Source: Candidatus Marinacidobacterales bacterium (GTDB lineage: Bacteria; Acidobacteriota; Vicinamibacteria; Marinacidobacterales; SMYC01). From it: DNA of 64,000 bases. Shown in pieces: positions 663 to 64,000 of this stretch. Every line of letters begins with the position of its first letter. The first letter of the stretch is position 1. The translations under genes and the position numbers were made by a program. Location: contig CBDCYI010000011.1 of assembly GCA_965224085.1 (NCBI GenBank), positions 704,001 through 768,000 on the forward strand. Reading direction: 5' to 3'. Under the pieces are notes generated by a model. It did no database searches, had not been told where the DNA came from, and worked only from the letters and a program-made list of their open reading frames with translations.

Positions 663-2352
663 CTAGTTCCTGTCCAGAAACACCATAACTTGTGGTGTAC
701 GAGAGGCCTATCGAAGATGTGGGTATTATACGTTTTCAGTCGGCACCTCGTAGGCTCGGAAGCGAATGAAAATCTTGGACGAAACGAGAGGCGAATCGTC
801 AGCAATCCATGGCTATAAACGCAGTAAGAGCAATCATTATTATCGTAATAGGTGCCTTGCCATTACCAACAGGTTGCAGGTGATGATGGAACTCCATACG
901 TAGGATTTGAAAGAAGGCAATGAGCGCCATGTGCATCGGTCGAGACCAAAGACTCGTTTCAAGAACGAAATGACGCCTTCGATTCCGCAGCGAAATCGCC
1001 GTAGGCGTTGATAGACCCAGGAACTCTTGACCATATCGGTCACCGCGAAGTGAGCCTTGGTAAAGGCAACATCTTCAACTCCCTTGCCTTTGATGGCTTC
1101 CAAGTTTGCCTTTGAAGAAAACGCGCCATCGTAGGCAACCTGGCGCGGGGCCCGTTCGTAGAGTTCGACTTGACGGTCGATCATGGTTTCCGCGAGAGTT
1201 GAATCGGACGGATTCCCATCCAAGATCACGCAATCCAAAATCATCGAGGACGAGCCACCAGTCAAACACACCTTGTGACCGTAGAGAGTCTCGCGCCGGT
1301 CTTTGCGAATAATGTCGGTGTGTTCTTCGAAGATCGAAACGACCTTTTCCTCCGCAGGCACACGCTCTTCATCAATCACTCTACGCCGAGTTTGGTTGAT
1401 GACTTTTTCGGTGAGGACGAGAAAGTGCTTAAAATCCGCGGCGATCTTCTCCGCACTCGCTCGCTTCACCGGCTCGGTCAAGCCGGACTCGTCCAACTGG
1501 TCTGCAACGCGTTGAGCGGAGCGATAGGTTTCTTCCGACACCTTCAGTAGATCTCGATAGACGCGACGCCTTTGTTCCTTATCCTTCGCGTTTAGAACTC
1601 CCAGTCGACGTCTCTTCGCTTGACGCGTTCGATTGCCGAAGACCACTACTGTACCCAGCAGTTCGCGAGTTCGGCACATGAGGCGAGTGAGAACTCGGAC
1701 GCAGTCATAAAGAAGCTCGGAGTCCGTAGGAGAATGAATATTCGACTCCACTACCGTGCAGTCCACTCGTACTTTTCTTCCTTTTTCGATCGCGGTCTTC
1801 TCGGCAACACTCACCAACTCTCGGTTGATTTTCTCCAGCGTTTCGAACTTCACGGCTTTGATGTTTGCTGCTAGGGTCGACTTCGACGGGCTCGGCTCTA
1901 TGATGCCGAGCTGGCAAAACGTCCGATAGCTTCGAGAGTCTGCCAAGTGAAACGCCAGCTCCCGATAGGTGAACTGATTCAGCTGCTTGACCAACAACGC
2001 CCGGAGAACCTGCTCCGCGCTCATTCCCCCACGACCAACATCGCTCCCTGCCGATGGGGTGACCGACCTCAGGTCTTGCAGTACCAGCTCATTCAGCTTA
2101 GGATGGGCATCGAGCAGCGATGATATCGTTTCGAGCTCGCGTGCGTGCTCCAGCTCCAGCCAGGGCTCGCGAAGGCTTGGTTGTGGGTTGATCGTTTTTC
2201 GCATTTAGGGCTGGTCTCCTTTGGAGTTAAGTCGTTTAGAATCTGCGTTTTTGTCGACTCGATACTAAACGACACTCCCTCAGAAGGCTAGCCCTAAATT
2301 TGCGATTACCCCTTTTTTCTCAACCTCTTACACCTGTCAGGACGGGTACTAG
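663..2352 (-). mobile_element. ISNCY/IS5-like insertion sequence
   Basis: Imperfect terminal IRs CTAGTTCCTGTCCAGAAA (from 663) and, as reverse complement, CTAGTACCCGTCCTGACA (ending 2352). ACTAGACTAGTT is directly repeated at 657-668 and 2348-2359, so the exact IR/TSD boundary is ambiguous. Confidence 0.8.
840..2204 (-). CDS. ISNCY-family DDE transposase
   Basis: 454 aa; RVDCTVVESNIH, YGHK, AYDGAF and RFRCGIEGVIS motifs. Confidence 0.9.
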   Translation of the reverse strand: MRKTINPQPSLREPWLELEHARELETISSLLDAHPKLNELVLQDLRSVTPSAGSDVGRGGMSAEQVLRALLVKQLNQFTYRELAFHLADSRSYRTFCQLGIIEPSPSKSTLAANIKAVKFETLEKINRELVSVAEKTAIEKGRKVRVDCTVVESNIHSPTDSELLYDCVRVLTRLMCRTRELLGTVVVFGNRTRQAKRRRLGVLNAKDKEQRRRVYRDLLKVSEETYRSAQRVADQLDESGLTEPVKRASAEKIAADFKHFLVLTEKVINQTRRRVIDEERVPAEEKVVSIFEEHTDIIRKDRRETLYGHKVCLTGGSSSMILDCVILDGNPSDSTLAETMIDRQVELYERAPRQVAYDGAFSSKANLEAIKGKGVEDVAFTKAHFAVTDMVKSSWVYQRLRRFRCGIEGVISFLKRVFGLDRCTWRSLPSFKSYVWSSIITCNLLVMARHLLR

Positions 2353-2420
2353 ACTAGTTGCGAATCGGTGCTCGCTGCGGAATAGTTTCCGAGGCCCACC
2401 GTCTTCGTTACTGTTTCGGG

Positions 2421-2933
2421 TTACTCTTCCGGGTATCGCTCGAAAAGCGTCGTCACGGCCGCGTTAATCTGCTTTTCCGCTTTGTCCGGTGTTTCGAGAG
2501 GGTAGGTCCGCTTCGCGTGCCACACGAGAAAGTTCGATTCGGCTTCGACGAGCTCGATACTGAAATTCGCGAGCTTCTCGCGGTTGAAATCGATCTGCAC
2601 CGAGGAGTTGGCGTCGTCCCAAACGGAACGCTGTTGGGAGGCGCGGCCTTGGACGCGTTCAACGAGCTCCACGCGGTACTGGATGCGCACATCCGGCCGC
2701 ACGGTGTCGGGTCGATAGCCCAGCTCTTTCAACGACTTCTGAACGGCGTTTACGATTCGCAAGTGGTTGGCCATGTTCTCGAGCGGCACCTGCTTCTTGT
2801 TCCAGGCATAGGTCTTGTAGTTCGAGAGGTCGGTAAGGTCTAGCTCGTCGAGATTAGGAAGTTGTGGTAGCTCCGGTTTCTGGGCCGTCTGGACGAACAA
2901 CGTAGCCGCGAGTGCGAGAACGGGACCGATCAT
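2421..2933 (-). CDS. DUF4136-like exported protein
   Basis: Signal peptide; DLSNYKTYAW motif; C-terminal INAAV..LFERYP; GGAGGA RBS before ATG 2933. Confidence 0.7.
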   Translation of the reverse strand: MIGPVLALAATLFVQTAQKPELPQLPNLDELDLTDLSNYKTYAWNKKQVPLENMANHLRIVNAVQKSLKELGYRPDTVRPDVRIQYRVELVERVQGRASQQRSVWDDANSSVQIDFNREKLANFSIELVEAESNFLVWHAKRTYPLETPDKAEKQINAAVTTLFERYPEE

Positions 2934-2996
2934 CAATTCCTCCAGCACACAGTTTCTCTAATAAGGTGAATCGTTGTCAACTGTACGGACGGCTCG

Positions 2997-3023
2997 ATTG
3001 TATGCATCTAATGAATTGTGTCC
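2997..3023. promoter_or_regulatory. Possible MocR-family operator (two ATTGT repeats) in divergent intergenic region
   Basis: ATTGTATGC at 2997 and ATTGTGTCC at 3015 in an AT-rich spacer upstream of the MocR regulator. Confidence 0.25.
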
Positions 3024-3103
3024 ATGTGACTGAAAACAAGCCTATTAGAAGATCTATGCTATATACCCTTGAGAGGTACTGGAGCTAATGTTACGGTGCA
3101 ACC

Positions 3104-4486
3104 ATGACAATGTGGCGACCTTCCTTGACGGATTCCGAAACGCCTCTCTATCTTTCGATCGCGAACGCGCTCGCGGAGGACATCACCAGCGGGCTGTTAC
3201 AGGAAGGCGTGCGGCTCCCCCCGCAAAGGGAGCTTGCTGACGAGCTCCACGTGGCGTTGACGACGGTCACCCGCGCGTATACCGAAGCCGAAAGGCGTGG
3301 TCTCGTGAGCGGCGAGGTCGGGCGCGGAACGTTCGTGCGCCAGCAGGAGACTTTTCATCTGCGGCGAACGGAGCCTGAGCCCACCGCCATCGACTTGACG
3401 ACCAACAGCTTGCTGCCTTATCCGAAAGGCAAAGCGCTCGCCGAGAGCATGGCGCGGGTTCTGGCGAAGGGCGACCCGTGGGCGGCGCTCGACTATCAAC
3501 CTCATTACGGCACATGCCGTCAGCGCGAAGCCGGCGCGCGGCTTCTCGAGCGCGTCGGGCTCGATGCTGCCGCGGAGTGCGTGGTCGTGACGAGCGGCGC
3601 CCAGCATGCTATGGCGATGGTGTTCTCGGCTTTGACGAATCCCGGCGACACGGTGCTCACGGGCGAGCTCACCTATAGCGGGATGAAATCGCTCGCGAAT
3701 TTCCTGCACATCCGGCTGCGAGGTCTCGCGATGGACGAAGAAGGCATCCGCGCCGACGCGCTCGAAGCGGCTTGCGCGACGACGGACGCGAAGGCGCTCT
3801 ATTGCATGCCGACGCTCCAGAACCCTACCGCCGCGGTGATGTCGGAGCGGCGCCGCCAGGAGATTGCCGCGGTCGCAGAGTCCTATGGCCTCGCTGTCGT
3901 CGAGGATGACAGCTACGGGTTTCTTCTGCCCGAGGTCAAAGCTCTCGGCGCCTATGCAATAACGAAGAAGAACTTCTTCTACCTCACCGGCACATCGAAG
4001 AGCCTCGCGCCCGGCCTTCGCATCGGGTTTCTTCTGTCGCCGGGAGAGATGGTCGATCGGCTCGCCGCGGCGATTTCGGCGACGACGTTCATCGCCTCTC
4101 CGGTAACAGCGGAGGTCGTCACAGCATGGATCGAGGACGGGACGGCCGATCAAGTGATGGAGTGGAAGCGCGGCGAGGTGCGCCATCGCCAGAAGCTCGC
4201 AAAAAAGCTCTTCAAGAATGTCGACTACCGCGCGCATGCGGCGAGCCCTCATGGGGGGCTCACGCTCCCCGAGCCCTGGTGCGTACGTGACTTCGTATCC
4301 CAGGCGCGAATGCGCGGTGTCATCATCTCGCCAGCGGAAGACTTCGTCGCGGCCCGCTCGACCAATGCGCATGCCGTACGCCTTTGCCTCGGACCAGTGC
4401 GCCAAGCCGGCCGGCTGGAACGGGCTCTCGAGACGCTCGTCGAGATTCTCGAAAGCCCGCCCGAGCCGTGCCGCGCGATGATATAG
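3104..4486 (+). CDS. MocR/GntR-family regulator with PLP-dependent aminotransferase domain
   Basis: N-terminal wHTH (RLPPQRELA...GEVGRGTFV); LQNPT, VEDDSY and SKSLAPGLRIG motifs. Confidence 0.93.
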   Translation: MTMWRPSLTDSETPLYLSIANALAEDITSGLLQEGVRLPPQRELADELHVALTTVTRAYTEAERRGLVSGEVGRGTFVRQQETFHLRRTEPEPTAIDLTTNSLLPYPKGKALAESMARVLAKGDPWAALDYQPHYGTCRQREAGARLLERVGLDAAAECVVVTSGAQHAMAMVFSALTNPGDTVLTGELTYSGMKSLANFLHIRLRGLAMDEEGIRADALEAACATTDAKALYCMPTLQNPTAAVMSERRRQEIAAVAESYGLAVVEDDSYGFLLPEVKALGAYAITKKNFFYLTGTSKSLAPGLRIGFLLSPGEMVDRLAAAISATTFIASPVTAEVVTAWIEDGTADQVMEWKRGEVRHRQKLAKKLFKNVDYRAHAASPHGGLTLPEPWCVRDFVSQARMRGVIISPAEDFVAARSTNAHAVRLCLGPVRQAGRLERALETLVEILESPPEPCRAMI

Positions 4487-4637
4487 AACTACGAATAGAC
4501 GCTCGAAAGGATCAATATTACGAAAAAAACTACTATTGATCTCTTGTAGGCCTCCAATTTCGTGCCCTCGAATTCTATCTTGCTGTTCTCCAGCTTCTAG
4601 GCTAGTGTTCCGCATCGATCCTCGAGAGGAGAGAGCG

Positions 4638-13865: not shown

Positions 13866-15862
13866 CTAGTCCGCGGCCGTCTTCGAAGTGTCGGTGAAAC
13901 CATCGGGCTCATCCGCAGGCACCGCGAACTCTTCTTCGGGATCGGGATCGGTCTCCGGCTCAGGGGCGGGCGCGGCGGCTTCTTCTTTAGGTACGTCTTC
14001 TTCCGCTTCGGGGGTTTCTTTCTTGGGCGGGGATAACTCGCGGGCGCGCTCGGTCATTTCTGCGGCGCGCTCGTGCGCGCCTTGACGCTCGTATAGCGTC
14101 GCGAGCGATTCGAAATAGATGGCGGCTGTCTCGTTGAGCTCCGCGGCGCGAAGGAGCGACTCTTCGGCTTCTTTGATCCAGTTCTGGTTTTTCATGAGCC
14201 CGAGCCCGAGGAGGTGGTGATACTCGGCCACTTCGCTGTCGAGCTCGATCGCTTGCCGCGAAAGCTGAATGGCTTCCCAGAAATCAGTGACTTCGAAGGA
14301 TTCCTTTGCGCGGCTGAACAGCTCGTCCGCAAAGTCACGCCGCTTCATGCTTCCGGTCGCAGCAGGATCTTCTTCTTGCTTGGGAGGCGCGGGCTCGTGC
14401 TTACCGGAGACGGTGCCGAGCGCTTCGGTCAAGATGGCGCACACACGCGCGAGCTTCTTGCGGTCCGGCGCACTGATGCTGCCTTTTTGGGCATCGGGGT
14501 GGTAGCGCTGCACGAGCTCCAGATAAGCGTTCTTGACTTCAGCGCCGGGGGTACTGATGTCGATCCCGAGAAGCTCCGAGTAACGCTTCTCTTTTCCTAG
14601 GCGCAGTACCCGGTCGACTTCGAGAACGAACATCTCGTCGAGCTCGTGCACCGGCTCGGACGCGGCTTCGTCCTCGACGAAAACGAGAAGGCCTTTTTCG
14701 AAAAAGTCGACGAGTGTGCCAGCGGCCTCGGCTTCGGGAACCGCGCTGACCGTCATAATGTCACGCGCGCGCGAAACGCCGTCGATCCGCGATAGCACGT
14801 ACCCTTGTGTCGGCGTTAGCCTAAAGTCTTGAAGGTCGTCGGAGAGCGTGGCCGAAAAACGCAAGGGCCGGTCGTCCGCTTTCAGCGATTGAATTTCGTC
14901 CGCGCTCGCCTCTCTCGGCGGAGACTCGGGCTCGGCGTGGCGGGGGACGGGTGCGGCCGCCACCTTGGGCGTCTCCGATACCGGGACGGGAGCCATCGGT
15001 CGAGCGCCGAGACGAAGGCTCCGGCCGAAAAAAAACGCTCGTCGGGATCTTTGGCGAGCGTTCTTTCGAGAACCGCCGCGACCTCCGTTGGAAAGGTCCT
15101 CTCCTTCCACGCTTTCGCTTCGAACGGGTTGGAGTTGACGATGCTCAGGAGCACACCCGTAAGGCTTCCACCTCGAAACGGTTTTTCGCCGCAGGCGCAT
15201 TCATAGAGAACGCAGCCGAGCGAGAAGAGATCGCTGCGCGAATCGACTTCCTCACCCTTGGCCTGCTCGGGCGACATGTAGTCGGGCGTTCCTACGAGGC
15301 TTCCAGAGTGTGTGAGGTGCGTCGAGCCGTCGGCTTTGGCAATACCAAAATCTGTAATCCGCGCTTCGAACTCCGGGGTAATCATGATTTTCGCTGGCTT
15401 GATATCGCGATGGATGACTTTGTGCTCGTGCGCGTAGGCGAGGGCTTTGGCTACTTGCGTCACGATGTCGACGATTCTCGCGAGCCCGAGCTTCTGTGAT
15501 TCCATCACCTCTTGGAGCGTGGAGCCTTCGATGAACTCCATGACGATGAAGCCCGTTTCGGGGGTAAAGATGATGTCGTGAATCGTGACGATGTTCGGGT
15601 GATGGAGCTGCGCGGCCACCTGCGCTTCTCGGATGAAGCGTTTGTTGAGCGCTTTTCTCTGGTCCGGTTCGAGCGACGTATCGAGGCGGATGCTCTTGAT
15701 AGCGACAAATCGGTTGAGGAAGGTGTCCTGGGCTTTCAAGACAGAGCCGAACGCGCCCACGCCTAGTCGGCCTAGGATCTCGTAGCGGTCTCCCGGTACT
15801 TTTTCGAGCTCTGAAAGCGCGTCGATAGCACTCGGCTGACTTTGCTCGGTCGATGAGGTCAC
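13866..15862 (-). pseudogene. Ser/Thr kinase + J-domain + TPR protein, split by a frameshift near 15000
   Basis: Kinase frame (GVGAFG, VAIK, HRDIKPAK, DFG, YMSPE) ends in nonsense after ALDR; the second frame carries a Pro-rich linker, J-domain RYHPD and TPR repeats. May be a sequencing error or two genes. Confidence 0.65.
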
Positions 15863-59583: not shown

Positions 59584-60495
59584 ATGAAGCAGGCAAGAAA
59601 GACACAGTTTTTCGTCGCTGCGATCGCGATATTGGCCGGATGGTCAACCTTGGCCGCGGCGCAGGGACAGCGCGCCTTGACCCCGGAAGAGCAAGCCGAG
59701 CGGGAGAAGCGGTTTCAAGCCGAGCTCGTCATGCCTCGACCGGTTGAAGCGCTCGATTCTATCTGGATCGAGGAGCTGACCTGGGTCGAGATTCGTGACG
59801 CGATCGCCTCCGGGAAGACGAGCGTCCTCGTCCCGACCGGAGGGATCGAGCAAAACGGCCCCTACGTGGCGATGGGGAAGCACAACTACATTCTTCAGAC
59901 GGCGTGCGAGGACATCGCGAGAGAGCTAGGCAACGCGCTCTGTGCGCCCATCGTCAAGCTCGTGCCGGAAGGCGATATCGACGAGCCGTCGGGCCACATG
60001 CGCTATTCGGGCACGATCAGCGTCCAAAACGAGACTTTCGAGGCCGTGCTCGAAGACGTCGGCCGGAGCCTGAAGGTGCATGGCTTCGAGAACATCATTT
60101 ATATAGGCGATAGCGGAGGCAATCAGCTCGGCCAAGAGGCGGTGACTGAGCGGCTCAACAAGCGCTGGAAGGACGCGCGCGCGCATCACATCGGTGGTTT
60201 TTACGACAATAACGGGCTCATCAAATACATGAATGACGAGCTCGGGATAACCGAGCCTTCGAGTGACGGCGTTCACGATTCTTATTGGATCACGGCGCTT
60301 CAGATGGTGACGGACCCATCGACGGTCCGCTACGAACAGCGGGTGGCCGCGAACAAAGCGATGGTGAACGGTGTGAGCATCGCGGACCTCGACAAGACGG
60401 TTGCGGTCGGCAAGAAGCTGATGCAGTGGCGCGTCGACAAAACGGTCAAGCTGATTCGCGAATCGATTGGCGCGGGCCATGCGTCACAGCAATAA
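59584..60495 (+). CDS. Creatininase family protein (exported)
   Basis: EELTW.E, PTGGIEQNGP...GKH, IGDSGGN and HD. Confidence 0.88.
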   Translation: MKQARKTQFFVAAIAILAGWSTLAAAQGQRALTPEEQAEREKRFQAELVMPRPVEALDSIWIEELTWVEIRDAIASGKTSVLVPTGGIEQNGPYVAMGKHNYILQTACEDIARELGNALCAPIVKLVPEGDIDEPSGHMRYSGTISVQNETFEAVLEDVGRSLKVHGFENIIYIGDSGGNQLGQEAVTERLNKRWKDARAHHIGGFYDNNGLIKYMNDELGITEPSSDGVHDSYWITALQMVTDPSTVRYEQRVAANKAMVNGVSIADLDKTVAVGKKLMQWRVDKTVKLIRESIGAGHASQQ

Positions 60496-60507
60496 GACGC
60501 GCGCTTG

Positions 60508-60577
60508 ATGTCACTTGCTGCCGGCTCCCGCCTCGGCTCTTACGAGGTGGGCTCTGCGATCGGTGTCGGTGGTATGG
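60508..60577 (+). pseudogene. Ser/Thr protein kinase 5' end interrupted in the Gly-rich loop by IS110 end
   Basis: Manual translation MSLAAGSRLGSYEVGSAIGVGGM, cut where GEVY would follow. Confidence 0.8.
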
Positions 60578-60592
60578 ACTCCCCACGCCGGA

Positions 60593-61888
60593 TCAAGAGA
60601 AAACCTTCTTCGTAGGAATCATCGTCGATTCGCTTTTTGTTGTGGACGTCCGCGAGGGGTCGTAAAGAGTTCTTTGTCGAAGCATCGCCATGGCGATGGG
60701 TAGAATGCGGTCCATGACGCCTCTGAGAGCTCTGGCATGGCTGTGGCCCGCGTCGCGAAGCCGATCGTAGTGCTTTTTAAAGTGTGGGTCGCGAAGCACG
60801 GCAGTGCTGGCCCAATGATGGAGAGCGTTATTGAGGGGCAAAGAGCGAGCTCTCCTCATCAGGATAGTTGGTCGCAACTGACCGCGCTTGCCGCTTTTTT
60901 TCGTGACGGGTGCGATGCCGCTGAGAGTCCTGAAGGCTTTGAGATTTCGTAGCCGAATGGGGTCGTGGGCATAGCAGAGCACGGAGGCGAGCACGTAAGC
61001 ACCGACGCCGGGCAAAGAGGCAAGAATGGCAGCGTCGGAGCACTGCTTGTCGTTCAGTGCTTGCAAGCGCTTGAACCACTTCTCGAGATGCTGGTCGGAG
61101 GCACGACGATGTTGTCGAACGAGGAGCAACTGCTGAAGGAGCAGTTCGAGATGCTCAGAAGTAGCTTTGGTGGTTGCATGCGCGACTCGGAGTGGTTTTT
61201 GATTGAGGGTATCGAGGATCTGCTCGGGTTTTACGCGTCGGATGCGGTGTTTTTTAACGAGCGTCTCGATGGTGTGGCGGCTAAGAGAGTTGGGGCTGGA
61301 TTCGAAGAAGAGTTTTAGGAGCTCGCAGAAAAACGCGTCGAGAGCCTTATTCTTTGGCGCGAGCGAGACGAGGTGAGGCCAACAACGAGTAAGGAGTTCT
61401 CGGATCTGCGAGCTGAGGGCAACGTGGTTTTTGACAAGTTGGTCGCGGGTGCTCAACAGCCCGCGCATAGCAAGGATCTCCGGAGGTGGAAGTTGCAAGC
61501 GCTGAAAGCGGTGACCGTCGGTTCTGAGCGAATCGGCGAGAACGAAGGCGTCGCGCCGATCATCCTTGGCGCCGCTCATAGAATGCCGGTCGCGGAAACG
61601 GTCGACCTGCTTGGGATTGATGGAGAAAATGGCGATGGCGTTGTCAAGAAAGAGCTCGACGACGGCTCCATGAGGCTTTTCGATCGCCACTGCGATGCGC
61701 TCGGTGTCTTGCGTGGTCAGTTCCAGAAGCCAGCCGATCGTTTCTGAAAGTCCTTCGCGGCTATGAGGAAAGCCGCGCTCCCCCATAAATTGTCCCCTGG
61801 TATCGACCACGCTGGCCAAGTGAAGCCATTGGCCCAGGTCGACACCGACGAAGAAGTCGTAGTCGAGCTGATTCCTGGAAGAACTCAT
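60593..61888 (-). CDS. IS110-family recombinase/transposase
   Basis: DEDD RuvC-like residues (GVDLG, AIEK, KDDRRDA); SLPGVG and GIAPVTKKSG (Tnp-domain Ser). Confidence 0.95.
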   Translation of the reverse strand: MSSSRNQLDYDFFVGVDLGQWLHLASVVDTRGQFMGERGFPHSREGLSETIGWLLELTTQDTERIAVAIEKPHGAVVELFLDNAIAIFSINPKQVDRFRDRHSMSGAKDDRRDAFVLADSLRTDGHRFQRLQLPPPEILAMRGLLSTRDQLVKNHVALSSQIRELLTRCWPHLVSLAPKNKALDAFFCELLKLFFESSPNSLSRHTIETLVKKHRIRRVKPEQILDTLNQKPLRVAHATTKATSEHLELLLQQLLLVRQHRRASDQHLEKWFKRLQALNDKQCSDAAILASLPGVGAYVLASVLCYAHDPIRLRNLKAFRTLSGIAPVTKKSGKRGQLRPTILMRRARSLPLNNALHHWASTAVLRDPHFKKHYDRLRDAGHSHARALRGVMDRILPIAMAMLRQRTLYDPSRTSTTKSESTMIPTKKVFS

Positions 61889-61901
61889 TGCCGTCAGCGC
61901 A

Positions 61902-62036
61902 TGTGATGTTTCATCGGCCCCTGTACCGGCGCTCGAAGCGCAACTCCCCATTGGATGTCCATCACAAGAAAATTGCCGGCACGCGTGTCCATACCGGGCG
62001 CTCGGAGCGCAGGGCGAAGTATGGCGTTGCCGGCAA
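61902..62036 (-). ncRNA. Putative bridge RNA (target-binding and donor-binding loops); 5' end not defined
   Basis: Two stem-enclosed internal loops, each capped by a GCGCT-N3-AGCGC hairpin; loop sequences match the observed insertion junction and the element end. Confidence 0.8.
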
Positions 62037-62083
62037 GCTGCTGACGAAATCGAAAATAGTTCAAGCTCATCGTGAGATTTGCT

Positions 62084-62500
62084 CTACCACTGCAATCGAA
62101 GCTGGCGCGCGATGCCACCAGCTCGTGCTGGTTTTTTTCTCGGTTGTTTCGGGCGAAGCACGTCTGCGAGTTTTTCTCGAAGGTAGCGAACATAAGGCGG
62201 GTCTAGATATTCACTTCGCACTTCCTCGAGCACAGGTGAAAAATAGCGAAGGGAGCGAATGGGTTGTAGTGGCTCCTCATGCTCTTGTAGCTCCCGACGA
62301 GCGCAACCCAGAAGTAGGGCGCACTCGAATTCGTATAACGGGACGCCCTGGCGGTAGAGTCGCGTCGCCATGAAGCGATCGTCGCGCCGTGGTCGCTCAG
62401 GTGTGTTCGGAATAGAAACATAGATATCCAAAACCGCCCGGACATAATCGTTTTCTGTTAGAGCGTCGCTCGTGAGCGGTTTATCACTGAGCTTCGACAT
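62084..62500 (-). CDS. Hypothetical passenger protein
   Basis: ~138 aa; YVRAVL..Y...P.TP, ALLLGCARR, PIRSLRYF.PV.EEV; GGAGG RBS. Confidence 0.7.
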   Translation of the reverse strand: MSKLSDKPLTSDALTENDYVRAVLDIYVSIPNTPERPRRDDRFMATRLYRQGVPLYEFECALLLGCARRELQEHEEPLQPIRSLRYFSPVLEEVRSEYLDPPYVRYLREKLADVLRPKQPRKKPARAGGIARQLRLQW

Positions 62501-62889
62501 CCATCCACCTCCCGCGTCCGCCGCAGATACAGCATTTGGCATATCCGAAACTGTCAAGCTTCGTTTTCATTGAAAGAACCATCGAGCTCCGTGACCGGAT
62601 CTGTTCTCTGATTCCTACATTGCCCGAGTTACCGACGTGAATGGAACCATGATCCGTTACTTTTTCTTGGTGTCGTCGATACTCACGTTGCCGGTCCGCA
62701 CAATCTCGACTGTCCTTCGACACTTTCTCGATCTTTGCGGTTGTAGCCGCGACACTTTATTAGGCCGGCATGATAAGAGCACGCTTTACCGCAGTAGCAG
62801 TGTCCACGGTCACAGCTCTTGCAGATGTAGAAGGCCTCTGAACAGTTACGACAAAAACGCTGGTACACAACGACTGGTTTGGTGGCCAT
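62484..62889 (-). pseudogene. Cys-rich (Zn-finger-like) passenger protein, frameshifted near 62720
   Basis: CRNC...CKSCDRGHCYC..AC in one frame, continuing as DRQREYRR...VTDHGS...CCICG in another. Confidence 0.65.
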
Positions 62890-62947
62890 TTGAGACTCAG
62901 CAAGCGCTGGACTATGGCGTTTTCTCTTGATCCGGCGTGGGGAGTCC

Positions 62948-63921
62948 ATTCCGTACGGATCCTCGTGATGGTACTCGAGCCGGTTGCGCTCGGGACATCG
63001 TCTGCCGTCGTGCGCGACAAACGTGCACTGTCCCCCATCTCGCACCCATACGAAACGTTTCACCGCGGCGGCGATGCCGCGCACACCCGGTGACGTGTCG
63101 GCGTCTTCGACATTCGTTCTCGGGTTCTTCGTTTTACCGAAACGCTTGGCTTCGAGCCGCTCGAGCTTTTCGCTCACCGCCGCGTCGATGACCGAAGCGA
63201 GGTCACTACCGGGAATGAGCGCCTCGAGTCGTTCGAGTTTGTCGCGAAGCTCGGCGCTCGCCGTGAATGTTACTTGATAGCGCGCCGGTGATAGCGGCGC
63301 CACGGTCGGACGTTTTTCAGGTGCTGTCTCACGTGCCTGTGGCGGCTCATTCTCACCCGGCTCACCCGGCTCACCCGGCTCACCCGGCTCACCGTGCGCC
63401 TCTGCTCTTTCTTCACGTTGCTCGTCCGACGGCTTGGAAGGCTTGGACGATCCGGACTGGGCTTTCGGTTGCGGCTTCTTTCGAATCTTCGGTGGAACAT
63501 CCGGTTTCGGAGCCCATTCCGCCACGAGCTCTTCGAGCTCGCGTTTGCTCTTGTGAGTGGCTCTTGCCAAGACCTCTTCGCCATTGGCCTCGGTGAGATG
63601 TTTCGCGATCACGGCGATGCCACACAAGTGAAGGCGTCCATCCTCGAGCATTGTGAGAAGCGCGGGAAATCTGCGTGATAGCCGGGCGGCGGTGATTCGC
63701 CGATAGGCTTGCGCTTCCGATAAATGCAAAACGTCCAAGCAAAAGCGGAACATGGACGGCGCGGCTTCGCGAGCAAAGAGACGACGCGCATCGACCGCAG
63801 CGATATGCGCGACGAGCACGGCCTCGCGACACCGCGACTCCTTGAGGGCGTCCGATAGTCGAACAAGAAGCTCGTCATCCGATAATGCTGAGAGCCATTT
63901 CAATGTGTCCTTTGTAGTCAT
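62948..63921 (-). pseudogene. DUF222-like/HNH endonuclease domain protein truncated within the HNH motif by IS110 end
   Basis: LSDDELL.RL...LHLSEAQAYRRI.AAR; VWVRDGGQCTF...RC...LEYHHEDPYGM, then IS end sequence. Confidence 0.8.
63352..63393. repeat. 9-bp tandem repeat (CTCACCCGG)x4 plus partial, encoding GEP repeats
   Basis: Direct reading; lies in the linker of the HNH protein. Confidence 0.9.
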
Positions 63922-64000
63922 GCTTTCTTATAACATGGACTTTTTGGACGCTCACCGCTAGCGAGTAACTAACACTATCGGATAGAAACGCTTTCGAAGT

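Follow-up and report, generated by a model that had tools for sequence, protein, structure and literature searches.

The stretch of DNA analysed here, called the window throughout, comprises 64,000 nucleotides (nt) from Candidatus Marinacidobacterales bacterium (GCA_965224085.1, contig CBDCYI010000011.1, positions 704,001–768,000 of the forward strand) and contains a copy of an insertion sequence of the IS110 family. This element very probably finds its insertion site by base pairing between RNA and DNA, at the codons of the glycine-rich loop (G-loop) of Ser/Thr kinase genes. An earlier note on the same DNA had given the element an extent of about 1.5 kb, a figure that has to be revised. In a search of the window's own genome (G000), full and partial copies were found that belong to two subtypes, and complete copies are approximately 2.6 kb long (2,602 bp in subtype A and 2,639 bp in subtype B), with two conserved passenger genes. 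Read along the transposase strand, the left end is followed by a Cys-rich gene, the gene of a protein of 138 amino acids (aa), the bridge RNA, the transposase gene and the right end; about 1.1 kb of the element extends past the RNA on the left-end side. The window copy belongs to subtype A, whose other copies are 99.9–100% identical to it; the two subtypes share approximately 86% identity overall and 94% in the RNA region. The part of the element past position 62036, the truncation of the window copy and the second (donor) loop of the RNA, all described below, were absent from the earlier note.

The transposase gene lies on the minus strand at 60593–61888 (431 aa from the ATG at 61888, a tentative start) and encodes an IS110-family protein with DEDD and Tnp domains. 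The open frame of 452 codons to which it belongs (60593–61951, minus strand) matches PF01548, the N-terminal DEDD/RuvC-like domain (5.7e-30), and PF02371, the C-terminal Tnp domain (2.9e-11). With 161.8 bits it also exceeds the cut-off (140) of the NCBIfam model NF033542, "IS110 family RNA-guided transposase". The protein resembles the IS621 transposase 8wt6 (E 5e-7) and ISCro4 (9t56), and the alignment to 8wt6 places ..VTKKSGK.. of the query over ..RRYESGS..; the serine aligned in these two motifs is presumably the catalytic one. Three subtype-B copies are identical across 2,639 bp, the window copy differs from a sister copy at 3 of 2,341 positions and the transposase frame is open in at least eight copies. 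The near-identical copies record recent activity of the element.

At its right-hand junction, the element abuts the 5' fragment of a Ser/Thr kinase gene (60508–60577, plus strand, MSLAAGSRLGSYEVGSAIGVGGM), which starts at the ATG at 60508 and is cut within the Gly-rich loop. The last seven bases of the fragment, GGTATGG (60571–60577), form the right half-site plus the core. The core dinucleotide (60576–60577) is GG, or CC on the element's sense strand, and it occurs twice in complete copies and once in orthologous empty sites. The non-coding right end (RE) follows at 60578–60592 (minus strand; the sense strand ends ..CCGGCGTGGGGAGT). The motif pattern of the kinase fragment recurs at other right-end junctions.

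On the other side, the window copy is preserved past 62036 up to 62918, where it is truncated. The last preserved part of the left end (LE) occupies 62890–62918 on the minus strand, and the terminal 261 bp or so, which in complete copies run on to ..GCAAGCGTACA-GG, have been lost. At 62918/62919 the truncated left end meets, head-on, 27 nt of the right end of a second copy in inverted orientation (62919–62945, plus strand), followed by CCATTCC (62946–62952). This fragment thus keeps its own flank, GGAATGG, which lies inside a DUF222/HNH-type gene. The 5' part of that gene (62946–63921, minus strand) is cut after ..EYHHEDPYGM; its DUF222 match is 20.2 bits, under the Pfam cut-off of 24.4. Its paralogues run on ..YGLGGD.., and the site is therefore a near-cognate one. 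Neither homology nor a core-like or recombinase-type motif accounts for the junction at 62918/62919. The sequence immediately preceding it, CTATGG, is similar to the right half-site.

Because this inverted fragment adjoins the truncated end, the window copy displays an apparent terminal inverted repeat (TIR), and the locus could be taken for a transposon with inverted repeats of 27–34 bp (60571–60604 and 62919–62952) that merely carries an IS110-type gene. Indeed, the 27-mer ACTCCCCACGCCGGATCAAGAGAAAAC stands on both sides of the element in the window, in inverted orientation, and the flanks are similar too. This explanation was nevertheless rejected as highly improbable, since it is contradicted by all the other complete copies: they pass the position equivalent to 62918 by approximately 261 bp and end in ..GCAAGCGTACAGG, without terminal inverted repeats. 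In addition, among the 11 right ends in G000, counted as occurrences of the 27-mer, the window fragment is the sole inverted partner beside an element, and it has a near-cognate flank of its own in another gene. The ends of an IS110-type insertion are what the complete copies present. If a slash marks the junction, they read on the window's plus strand ..ATGG/ACTCCCC at one side and ..GCAAGCGTACAGG/GCGAG.. at the other (in short, ..ATGG/ACTCC...TACAGG/GCGAG..), with the same GG core at both junctions and no longer target duplication. On the sense strand, the right end is ..GCGTGGGGAGT-CC and the left end CC-TGTACGCTTGC.. Its left terminus being gone, the window copy probably cannot move itself, although its RNA sequence and an open transposase frame are preserved.

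Predicted bridge RNA and its guides

Directly upstream of the transposase, on the minus strand, approximately 150 nt (about 62045–61895, the ends being approximate) would form an RNA with two loops which, by every sequence-level criterion that could be tested, is an IS621-type bridge RNA. The first of them, the target-binding loop (61973–62036, minus strand), is closed by the stem arms UUGCCGGCA (62036–62028) and UGCCGGCAA (61981–61973), which appear on the plus strand as TGCCGGCAA at 62028–62036 and TTGCCGGCA at 61973–61981, and it contains the inner hairpin GCGCUCCGAGCGC (62010–61998). Its left target guide (LTG, 62020–62012, ACUUCGCCC) has 9 nt, ACUUCGC plus the core CC, and its right target guide (RTG, 61995–61989, GGUAUGG) has 7 nt, GGUAU plus the core GG. 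Stem arms, inner hairpin, guides and the GGTATGG flank all lie where the earlier note had placed them. The pairing rule that it used is likewise the published one: in IS621, the 2-nt core is included in all four guide pairings (Durrant 2024, PMC11208160). Under this rule, the sense-strand reading of the first loop is ACTTCGC-CC-ATACC, equal to GGTATGGGCGAAGT, and its opposite strand, GGT ATG GGC GAA GT, encodes G-M-G-E-V, with GG/CC as the core. As had been claimed, the right guide matches the right flank of the window copy at 7 of 7 positions.

The second, donor-binding loop (61902–61966, minus strand) is closed by a stem of UGUGAUG (61966–61960) and CAUCACA (61908–61902) and comprises the left donor guide (LDG, 61950–61942, UGGGGAGU(U)), an inner hairpin (61941–61929, GCGCUUCGAGCGC) and the right donor guide (RDG, 61926–61920, GUACAGG). 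Its sense-strand reading, TGGGGAGT-(C)C / CC-TGTAC, corresponds to the ends of the element: LDG UGGGGAGU matches the RE ..GTGGGGAGT, and RDG GUACAGG matches the LE CC-TGTAC. The RDG is the complement of the core plus the LE start in 32 of 33 loci, and in 30 of 35 related loci the LDG is identical to the terminal 8 nt of the RE, four of the five misses being a 1-nt register shift in the script. Where the guides vary, the ends vary with them. All four loci with the RDG variant GUAUAGG and a recovered LE start begin CCTATAC, and the LDG variant GUGGGAAGU pairs with the RE ..GGGAAGT in L136 and L137. It appears, from these complementarities, that the second loop reads the joined ends of the element (..GTGGGGAGT-CC-TGTAC..).

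Two further features of this region concern its expression. The transposase frame is open through the entire donor-binding loop (61888–61951), up to the ATG at 61951, and an ATG or GTG lies within the LDG across the clade; the bridge RNA and the transposase coding region may overlap. At the right end, a TTGATC hexamer (60596–60591) overlaps the transposase stop codon and is a possible −35 box of a junction promoter, given that the joined ends would yield TTGATC, 17 nt and TACGCT. Downstream of this would-be promoter, the RNA and every gene of the element share one strand.

The structure of the RNA was evaluated in relatives of the element collected from 40 metagenomic loci (transposase identity 61–90%) and, in genome assemblies, from L056 (61%; a complete insertion in a different genus) and L082 (a partial copy in the same genus). 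Over the 35 distinct homologous RNA sequences on which the helix statistics were computed, the four helices (29 pairs) are paired in 98.3% of cases, and 7 of the 29 pairs exhibit compensatory changes. None of 500 shuffles reached pairing and compensation as high as this, and slid partners pair only in 19–51%.

Kinase codons at the junctions

Taken together, the guides of the clade read a 14-bp site, ACYTCNC-CC-ATNCC, which is the antisense of GGN ATG GGN GAR GT. The flanks of the copies can be compared with it at 44 right-end junctions (11 in G000 and 33 elsewhere) and 41 left-end junctions (9 in G000 and 32 elsewhere). Six of the 11 right-end flanks in G000 read ..[LI]G-x-G-G-M (e.g., PYEILGPIGAGGM, RYEFIEKLGAGGM and, in the window, SYEVGSAIGVGGM), and five of its nine left-end flanks read G-[E/D/V]-V-Y-[R/K/L]-A.. 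In other genomes and in metagenomes, G-x-G-G-M is found at all 33 right-end flanks, and 30 of the 32 left-end flanks fit the kinase loop, the two misfits being a kinase with a later stop codon and a locus with a wrong left-end call. Over all loci, the right-end flanks read G-x-(G)-G-M in 39 of 44 cases and the left-end flanks G-[E/D/V]-V-[Y/F] in 35 of 41.

Flanks that were joined in a script restore kinase frames (..KLGAGGM/GVVYRAKDTRLNRIVAYKML...HRDIKPSN and ..LGAGGM/GVVYRAKD...HRDIKPSN), and two Pkinase (PF00069) matches, at C5:1765446 and C4:1685155, start with profile position 13 right at the left-end junction. The insertion in the other genus, L056, sits between IGAGGM and GEVYRARDTKLDRTVALKILP. 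The exact 14-mer GGTATGGGCGAAGT, the target predicted in the earlier note, has a single occurrence in G000, which lies in the G-loop of an intact kinase (LGKGGMGEVWLADD), and its G–U variant GGTATGGGCGAGGT also occurs once, in another kinase. In line with the prediction, complete copies elsewhere in G000 continue G[C/T/G][G/T][A/T][G/C]GT.., that is, GEVY, GDVY or GVVY.

One explanation for such flanks is that they belong to a duplicated block of kinase plus element, or that the kinase fragment is a part of the element itself, and the BLAST matches of some copies do reach 10–50 bp past the element end into the flank. The chances of this are minimal, however, because the flanks encode different kinases (PYEILGPIGAGGM, RYEFIEKLGAGGM, CKILEKIGQCGM and others) that diverge fully a few codons from the junction, because the 33 loci elsewhere show further, different kinase flanks, and because three genomes of the same genus possess an orthologous kinase without the element. 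The kinase at C5:1762845–1765446, which holds a complete subtype-A copy, has orthologues that are 87–93% identical in all four same-genus genomes (G001–G004). In G001, G002 and G004 the allele is uninterrupted and reads ..GGCGGGATGG/GCGTCGTC.., with GG once (..ATGG/GCGTC..); one flank is followed straight by the other (..GGCGGGATGG/GCGTCGTCTAT.., or GAGGM/GVVYRAKD). As nothing separates the two flanks in these orthologues, the insertion was precise, and the GG core was single beforehand. The earlier note had looked to an empty allele of the window kinase. That particular allele was not recovered, as the upstream gene is syntenic in G002–G004 and similarity then ends, with a different sequence following; the empty site exists in the three genomes for the C5 kinase.

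Kinase genes are numerous in G000, with 46 Pkinase matches, and at least seven kinase loci contain a copy or a fragment, while one more contains a scar. At the scar (C11:655213–655,260, approximately, outside the window), 8 nt of the left end replace 10 nt of the G-loop. It reads ..ATCGGCAAG/CGTACAGG/GTGAGGTC.., and at the protein level ..HYEILEPIGK is followed by CGTACAGG and then by GTGAGGTCTAT; to judge from its sequence, it looks like a deletion of nearly the whole element between TCGGCAAG of the kinase and the identical 8-mer of the left end. The window also contains an intact Ser/Thr kinase gene (15032–15784, minus strand, equivalent to C11:719032–719784) whose loop, GVGAFGSV, is unoccupied and has five mismatches to the 14-mer of either subtype.

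The specificity for kinases is not shared by a more distant relative. An outgroup IS110 element with 42% transposase identity, present at eight metagenome-contig loci (L156–L163), has a similar right end, ..GGTGGGGAGT-CC, but none of the eight has kinase sequence in its flanks, and seven of the eight right flanks are GC-rich palindromes (GCGGGTCCCCCTGGACCCGC or GGGCGACCCCCCGGTCGCCC). Kinase targeting is therefore a property of the clade to which the window copy belongs.

Within this clade, the guides of the first loop vary almost only at LTG positions 3 and 6 and at RTG position 3; LTG positions 1, 2, 5 and 7–9 and every other RTG position are invariant. The variable positions face the third bases of GAN, GGN and GGN in GGN-ATG-GGN-GAN-GT, which are the wobble positions of the codons. 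Subtype A has LTG ACUUCGCCC and RTG GGUAUGG, and subtype B has LTG ACGUCGCCC and RTG GGAAUGG. Among the right flanks in G000, GGTATGG accompanies two of three subtype-A cases and GGAATGG three of seven subtype-B cases; the orphan right-end fragment at 62919–62945, of unassigned subtype, is flanked by GGAATGG too. For LTG 3 and 6, Watson–Crick pairs number 43 in 82 cells, where shuffles average 28.6 (p <= 1e-4), and the two figures become 64 and 51.4 (p <= 1e-4) when G–U pairs are allowed. RTG 3 is paired in 26 of 44 cases (shuffle mean 11.6, p <= 1e-4). As a control, the variable RNA column just 5' of the RTG was compared with the next target base and showed no covariation (8 of 43, expected 11.3), so that the RTG does not extend to an eighth position that covaries with the target.

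This covariation bears on another explanation, in which protein or DNA structure picks the site, the hairpins serve translational or transcriptional control and the complementarity between guides and flanks is a by-product. Such a role would agree with the open transposase frame through the second loop and with the sole terminator-like signal on the minus strand, a hairpin plus U-run at 61997–61976 that constitutes the 3' half of the first loop. It is improbable all the same. Guides and flanks covary at exactly the three variable positions and not in the neighbouring variable column, the donor-loop variants are matched by changed element ends, and the architecture is that of the IS621 RNA, which has been proven experimentally.

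Guidance by a bridge RNA, in turn, has a number of observations against it. In G000, 5 of the 11 right-end junctions lie outside kinases. Left-guide matches are often imperfect, with 0–3 mismatches in 9 positions; the sole complete copy of the window's subtype has two of them (ACGACGC versus ACUUCGC), and the window copy is without the left target half, the 3' half of its kinase being absent. The GEV codons that the earlier note had predicted from the left guide are therefore seen as GEVY, GDVY or GVVY beside other copies and not beside the window copy. The shuffles behind the covariation figures take no account of relatedness among the elements. With regard to the RNA, a single-sequence fold is not significant (minimum free energy −75.7 kcal/mol, z = −1.85, with 6 of 200 shuffles as good), and it is because homologous sequences keep the pairing that the structure is regarded as settled, though the single fold is unremarkable. 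Rfam gave no match at E <= 1 for window positions 60000–64000, although Rfam 15 may hold no bridge-RNA model, and a promoter scan of 60500–63000 found no sigma-70-like site upstream of the RNA on the minus strand. The bridge RNA is, accordingly, a prediction from DNA. Three RNA-labelled marine-sediment metagenome libraries hold relatives with 90–95% identity to the transposase, in the form of contigs, which cannot show transcription; the RNA region is covered by contigs in X18 and X20 and scarcely so in X19 (depth 0.28), the sole run recorded as RNA. Finally, recombination and circle formation are proposed for this element by analogy with IS621.

All five non-kinase sites in G000 resemble the 14-mer, keeping the core and most of the right half, with 0–2 mismatches on the right and 2–3 on the left, and such near-cognate sites fit the mismatch tolerance described for bridge recombinases. 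Their existence could also be invoked in favour of selection after random or loose insertion, in which only the insertions in redundant kinases survive; kinases are, as mentioned, numerous, and they are probably dispensable individually. Nonetheless, bond, codons and orientation are identical in every insertion, and the non-kinase sites share the core and most of the right half of the 14-mer as well. Given this single-nucleotide precision, survival alone is insufficient, and there is very little probability that it explains the bias. The proposal of the earlier note, homing to a motif of a multicopy kinase family, holds for 39 of 44 right and 35 of 41 left flanks, with the qualification that almost half of the right-end junctions in G000 are near-cognate sites in other sequences.

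If the element behaves as IS621 does, it would excise as a circle, a complex of recombinase and RNA would pair this circle with the target, and strands would be exchanged at the CC core. Exchange at that core would explain why the element is always antisense to the kinase and splits the Met and Gly codons. A family of about 40 paralogues shares the motif, which gives the element many targets, and its lineages vary chiefly at the three guide positions opposite the wobble bases of the codons. What is new is the target class and the architecture, the mechanism being a known one.

Passenger genes and a probable group II intron at the same bond

Passenger gene 1 (62084–62500, minus strand) encodes a protein of 138 aa from an ATG (MSKLSD..); the list of open reading frames gives instead a TTG at 62557 and 157 aa. 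The protein has 72 homologues, all unnamed or "hypothetical" and found only with this element clade. Its AlphaFold model is a five-helix bundle (predicted local distance difference test, pLDDT, 79) with no match in the PDB at E <= 0.001. Passenger gene 2 (62484–62889, minus strand) is Cys-rich and is frameshifted in subtype A, the window copy included. It is intact in subtype B, where it encodes 137 aa (L003:3460–3870, minus strand), and its family has eight invariant Cys in 14 sequences (CxxxxC..CxxC..C...C plus a C-terminal CxxC), with unnamed homologues; the model (pLDDT 59) is too poor for a structure search. Neither passenger protein belongs to a Pfam or NCBIfam family. The Cys-rich gene has been kept with the element down to 61% transposase identity, as in L056 (126 aa), which is without the 138-aa gene. 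Because subtype A, with its frameshift, spread recently, the Cys-rich gene is either dispensable or supplied by subtype B. The conservation of the two small genes along with the element suggests, at the level of sequence comparison, a role for the element itself.

A kinase-sense fusion frame that starts from the left end was also considered. In both subtypes and L056 it stays open for 52–177 codons, and it was rejected as a conserved feature, since its length ranges from 0 to 177 codons across 33 loci, with an immediate stop in L128, L136, L137 and L151. In eight loci (L056, L126, L138, L141, L143, L144, L153 and L154), the left end reads M-x-A-[S/R]-V-Q-G in the kinase frame, which puts an ATG five codons ahead of the remaining kinase part; the subtypes present in the window's genome are without it.

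The same position is used by an unrelated element. In G003, the orthologue of the C5:1762845 kinase is interrupted at the same nucleotide (±1) by an element of approximately 2,033 bp in the sense orientation of the kinase. The insert at this locus measures 3.5 kb because another insertion sequence lies within the second element (example L202, G003:C1:875200–880500, at 967–4495; others are L203–L241 in G003 and G002). It encodes an RVT_1 reverse transcriptase (5.1e-32) and is a probable group II intron, with two Rfam matches that are both below the gathering score: group-II-D1D4-6, domains I–IV (47.2 bits, E 3e-11; gathering score 49) and Intron_gpII, domains V/VI (30.5 bits, E 0.005; gathering score 40), the latter ending exactly at the 3' end. 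Among 16 intron 5' ends (12 in G003 and 4 in G002), 12 follow G-x-G-G-M and one follows G-x-S-G-M; downstream of 19 intron 3' ends, G-[E/D]-V-Y stands in 11 cases and G-x-V-[Y or stop] in three. The site pattern is ..GGNATGG/intron/GCGAGGT.. At intron positions 354–360, CCATGCC is complementary to GGCATGG, the commonest 5' exon end, and is a candidate for the loop of exon-binding site (EBS) 1. With a 438-nt probe, the intron was not found in G000, G001 or G004.

These observations can be combined in one broader proposal, for which the arguments on either side are about evenly balanced: the codons of the kinase Gly-loop would be a shared landing site that RNA can read, on which IS110 guides have become fixed, with wobble drift that tracks the paralogues, and on which a group II intron has converged, while the clade may depend on its two small proteins. 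If so, bridge recombinases would have their first accessory factors in these two proteins. With its passenger proteins and an RNA situated about 1 kb from its end, the element departs from the minimal IS621 layout, which may point to extra control steps. The probable intron at the same bond suggests that RNA-guided mobile DNA makes general use of strongly conserved codons as landing sites. In G000 the element remodels the set of kinase genes. Its targets number in the dozens per genome and would persist in any host with Hanks-type kinases. The clade constitutes a natural experiment on guide evolution and mismatch tolerance, comprising about 45 junctions whose variation is confined to wobble positions.

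Comparison with known systems

The element shares with IS621 and the IS110 group (PMC11208160, PMC11208158) a transposase with DEDD and Tnp domains, an RNA upstream of the gene and two internal loops. As in IS621, the 5' guide of each loop (8–9 nt) has top-strand sense, and the 3' guide (7 nt) is complementary to that strand; a 2-nt core stands at both ends, terminal inverted repeats are absent and empty sites are scarless. Four departures from the IS621 type can be proposed from the sequences. The core is CC here and CT in IS621. The RNA lies deep inside the left end (0.6–1.2 kb, behind one or two conserved protein genes), whereas the IS621 RNA adjoins the terminus. In nature the element aims at a motif in the coding sequence of a gene family, unlike IS621, whose target is a repetitive extragenic palindromic (REP) element, and the diversity of the guides is restricted to wobble positions. 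The transposase, moreover, is similar to that of IS621 only remotely (E 5e-7 to 8wt6).

Targets that occur repeatedly are known from other members of the family, namely REP sequences and, for IS4321/IS5075, the inverted repeats of Tn21 (cited in PMC11208160). Like those elements, the present one aims at a sequence that is present many times per genome. The difference is that their repeats are non-coding or are ends of mobile elements, while here the repeat is a conserved protein motif and the guide varies synonymously. This would be a natural guide aimed at a conserved protein motif, bridge RNAs being otherwise known from elements that target non-coding repeats. No report was found, in the literature that was searched, of an IS110 element or a group II intron that homes to kinase genes. 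The word "kinase" is absent from the main texts of PMC11208160, 10.64898/2026.10.21.760802 and 10.64898/2026.08.14.744561, although the supplementary motif tables of PMC11208160 could include the motif.

IS110 elements with cargo have been described as large, with mostly plasmid-derived and resistance cargo that was gained by repeated insertion (Hu et al. 2026 preprint, 10.64898/2026.08.14.744561). The element described here resembles them in exceeding the canonical length of approximately 1.5 kb and in having extra genes inside, and it differs from them in that these are two small conserved genes and not a plasmid-like accretion.

Lastly, mobile group II introns, which retrohome by means of the pairing between EBS and intron-binding sites (IBS), resemble this element in the RNA-guided choice of a DNA site of about 14 nt. 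The introns use a reverse transcriptase and a different mechanism, lie in sense and could in principle be removed by splicing; the IS110 element, by contrast, is inserted antisense and breaks the kinase gene.

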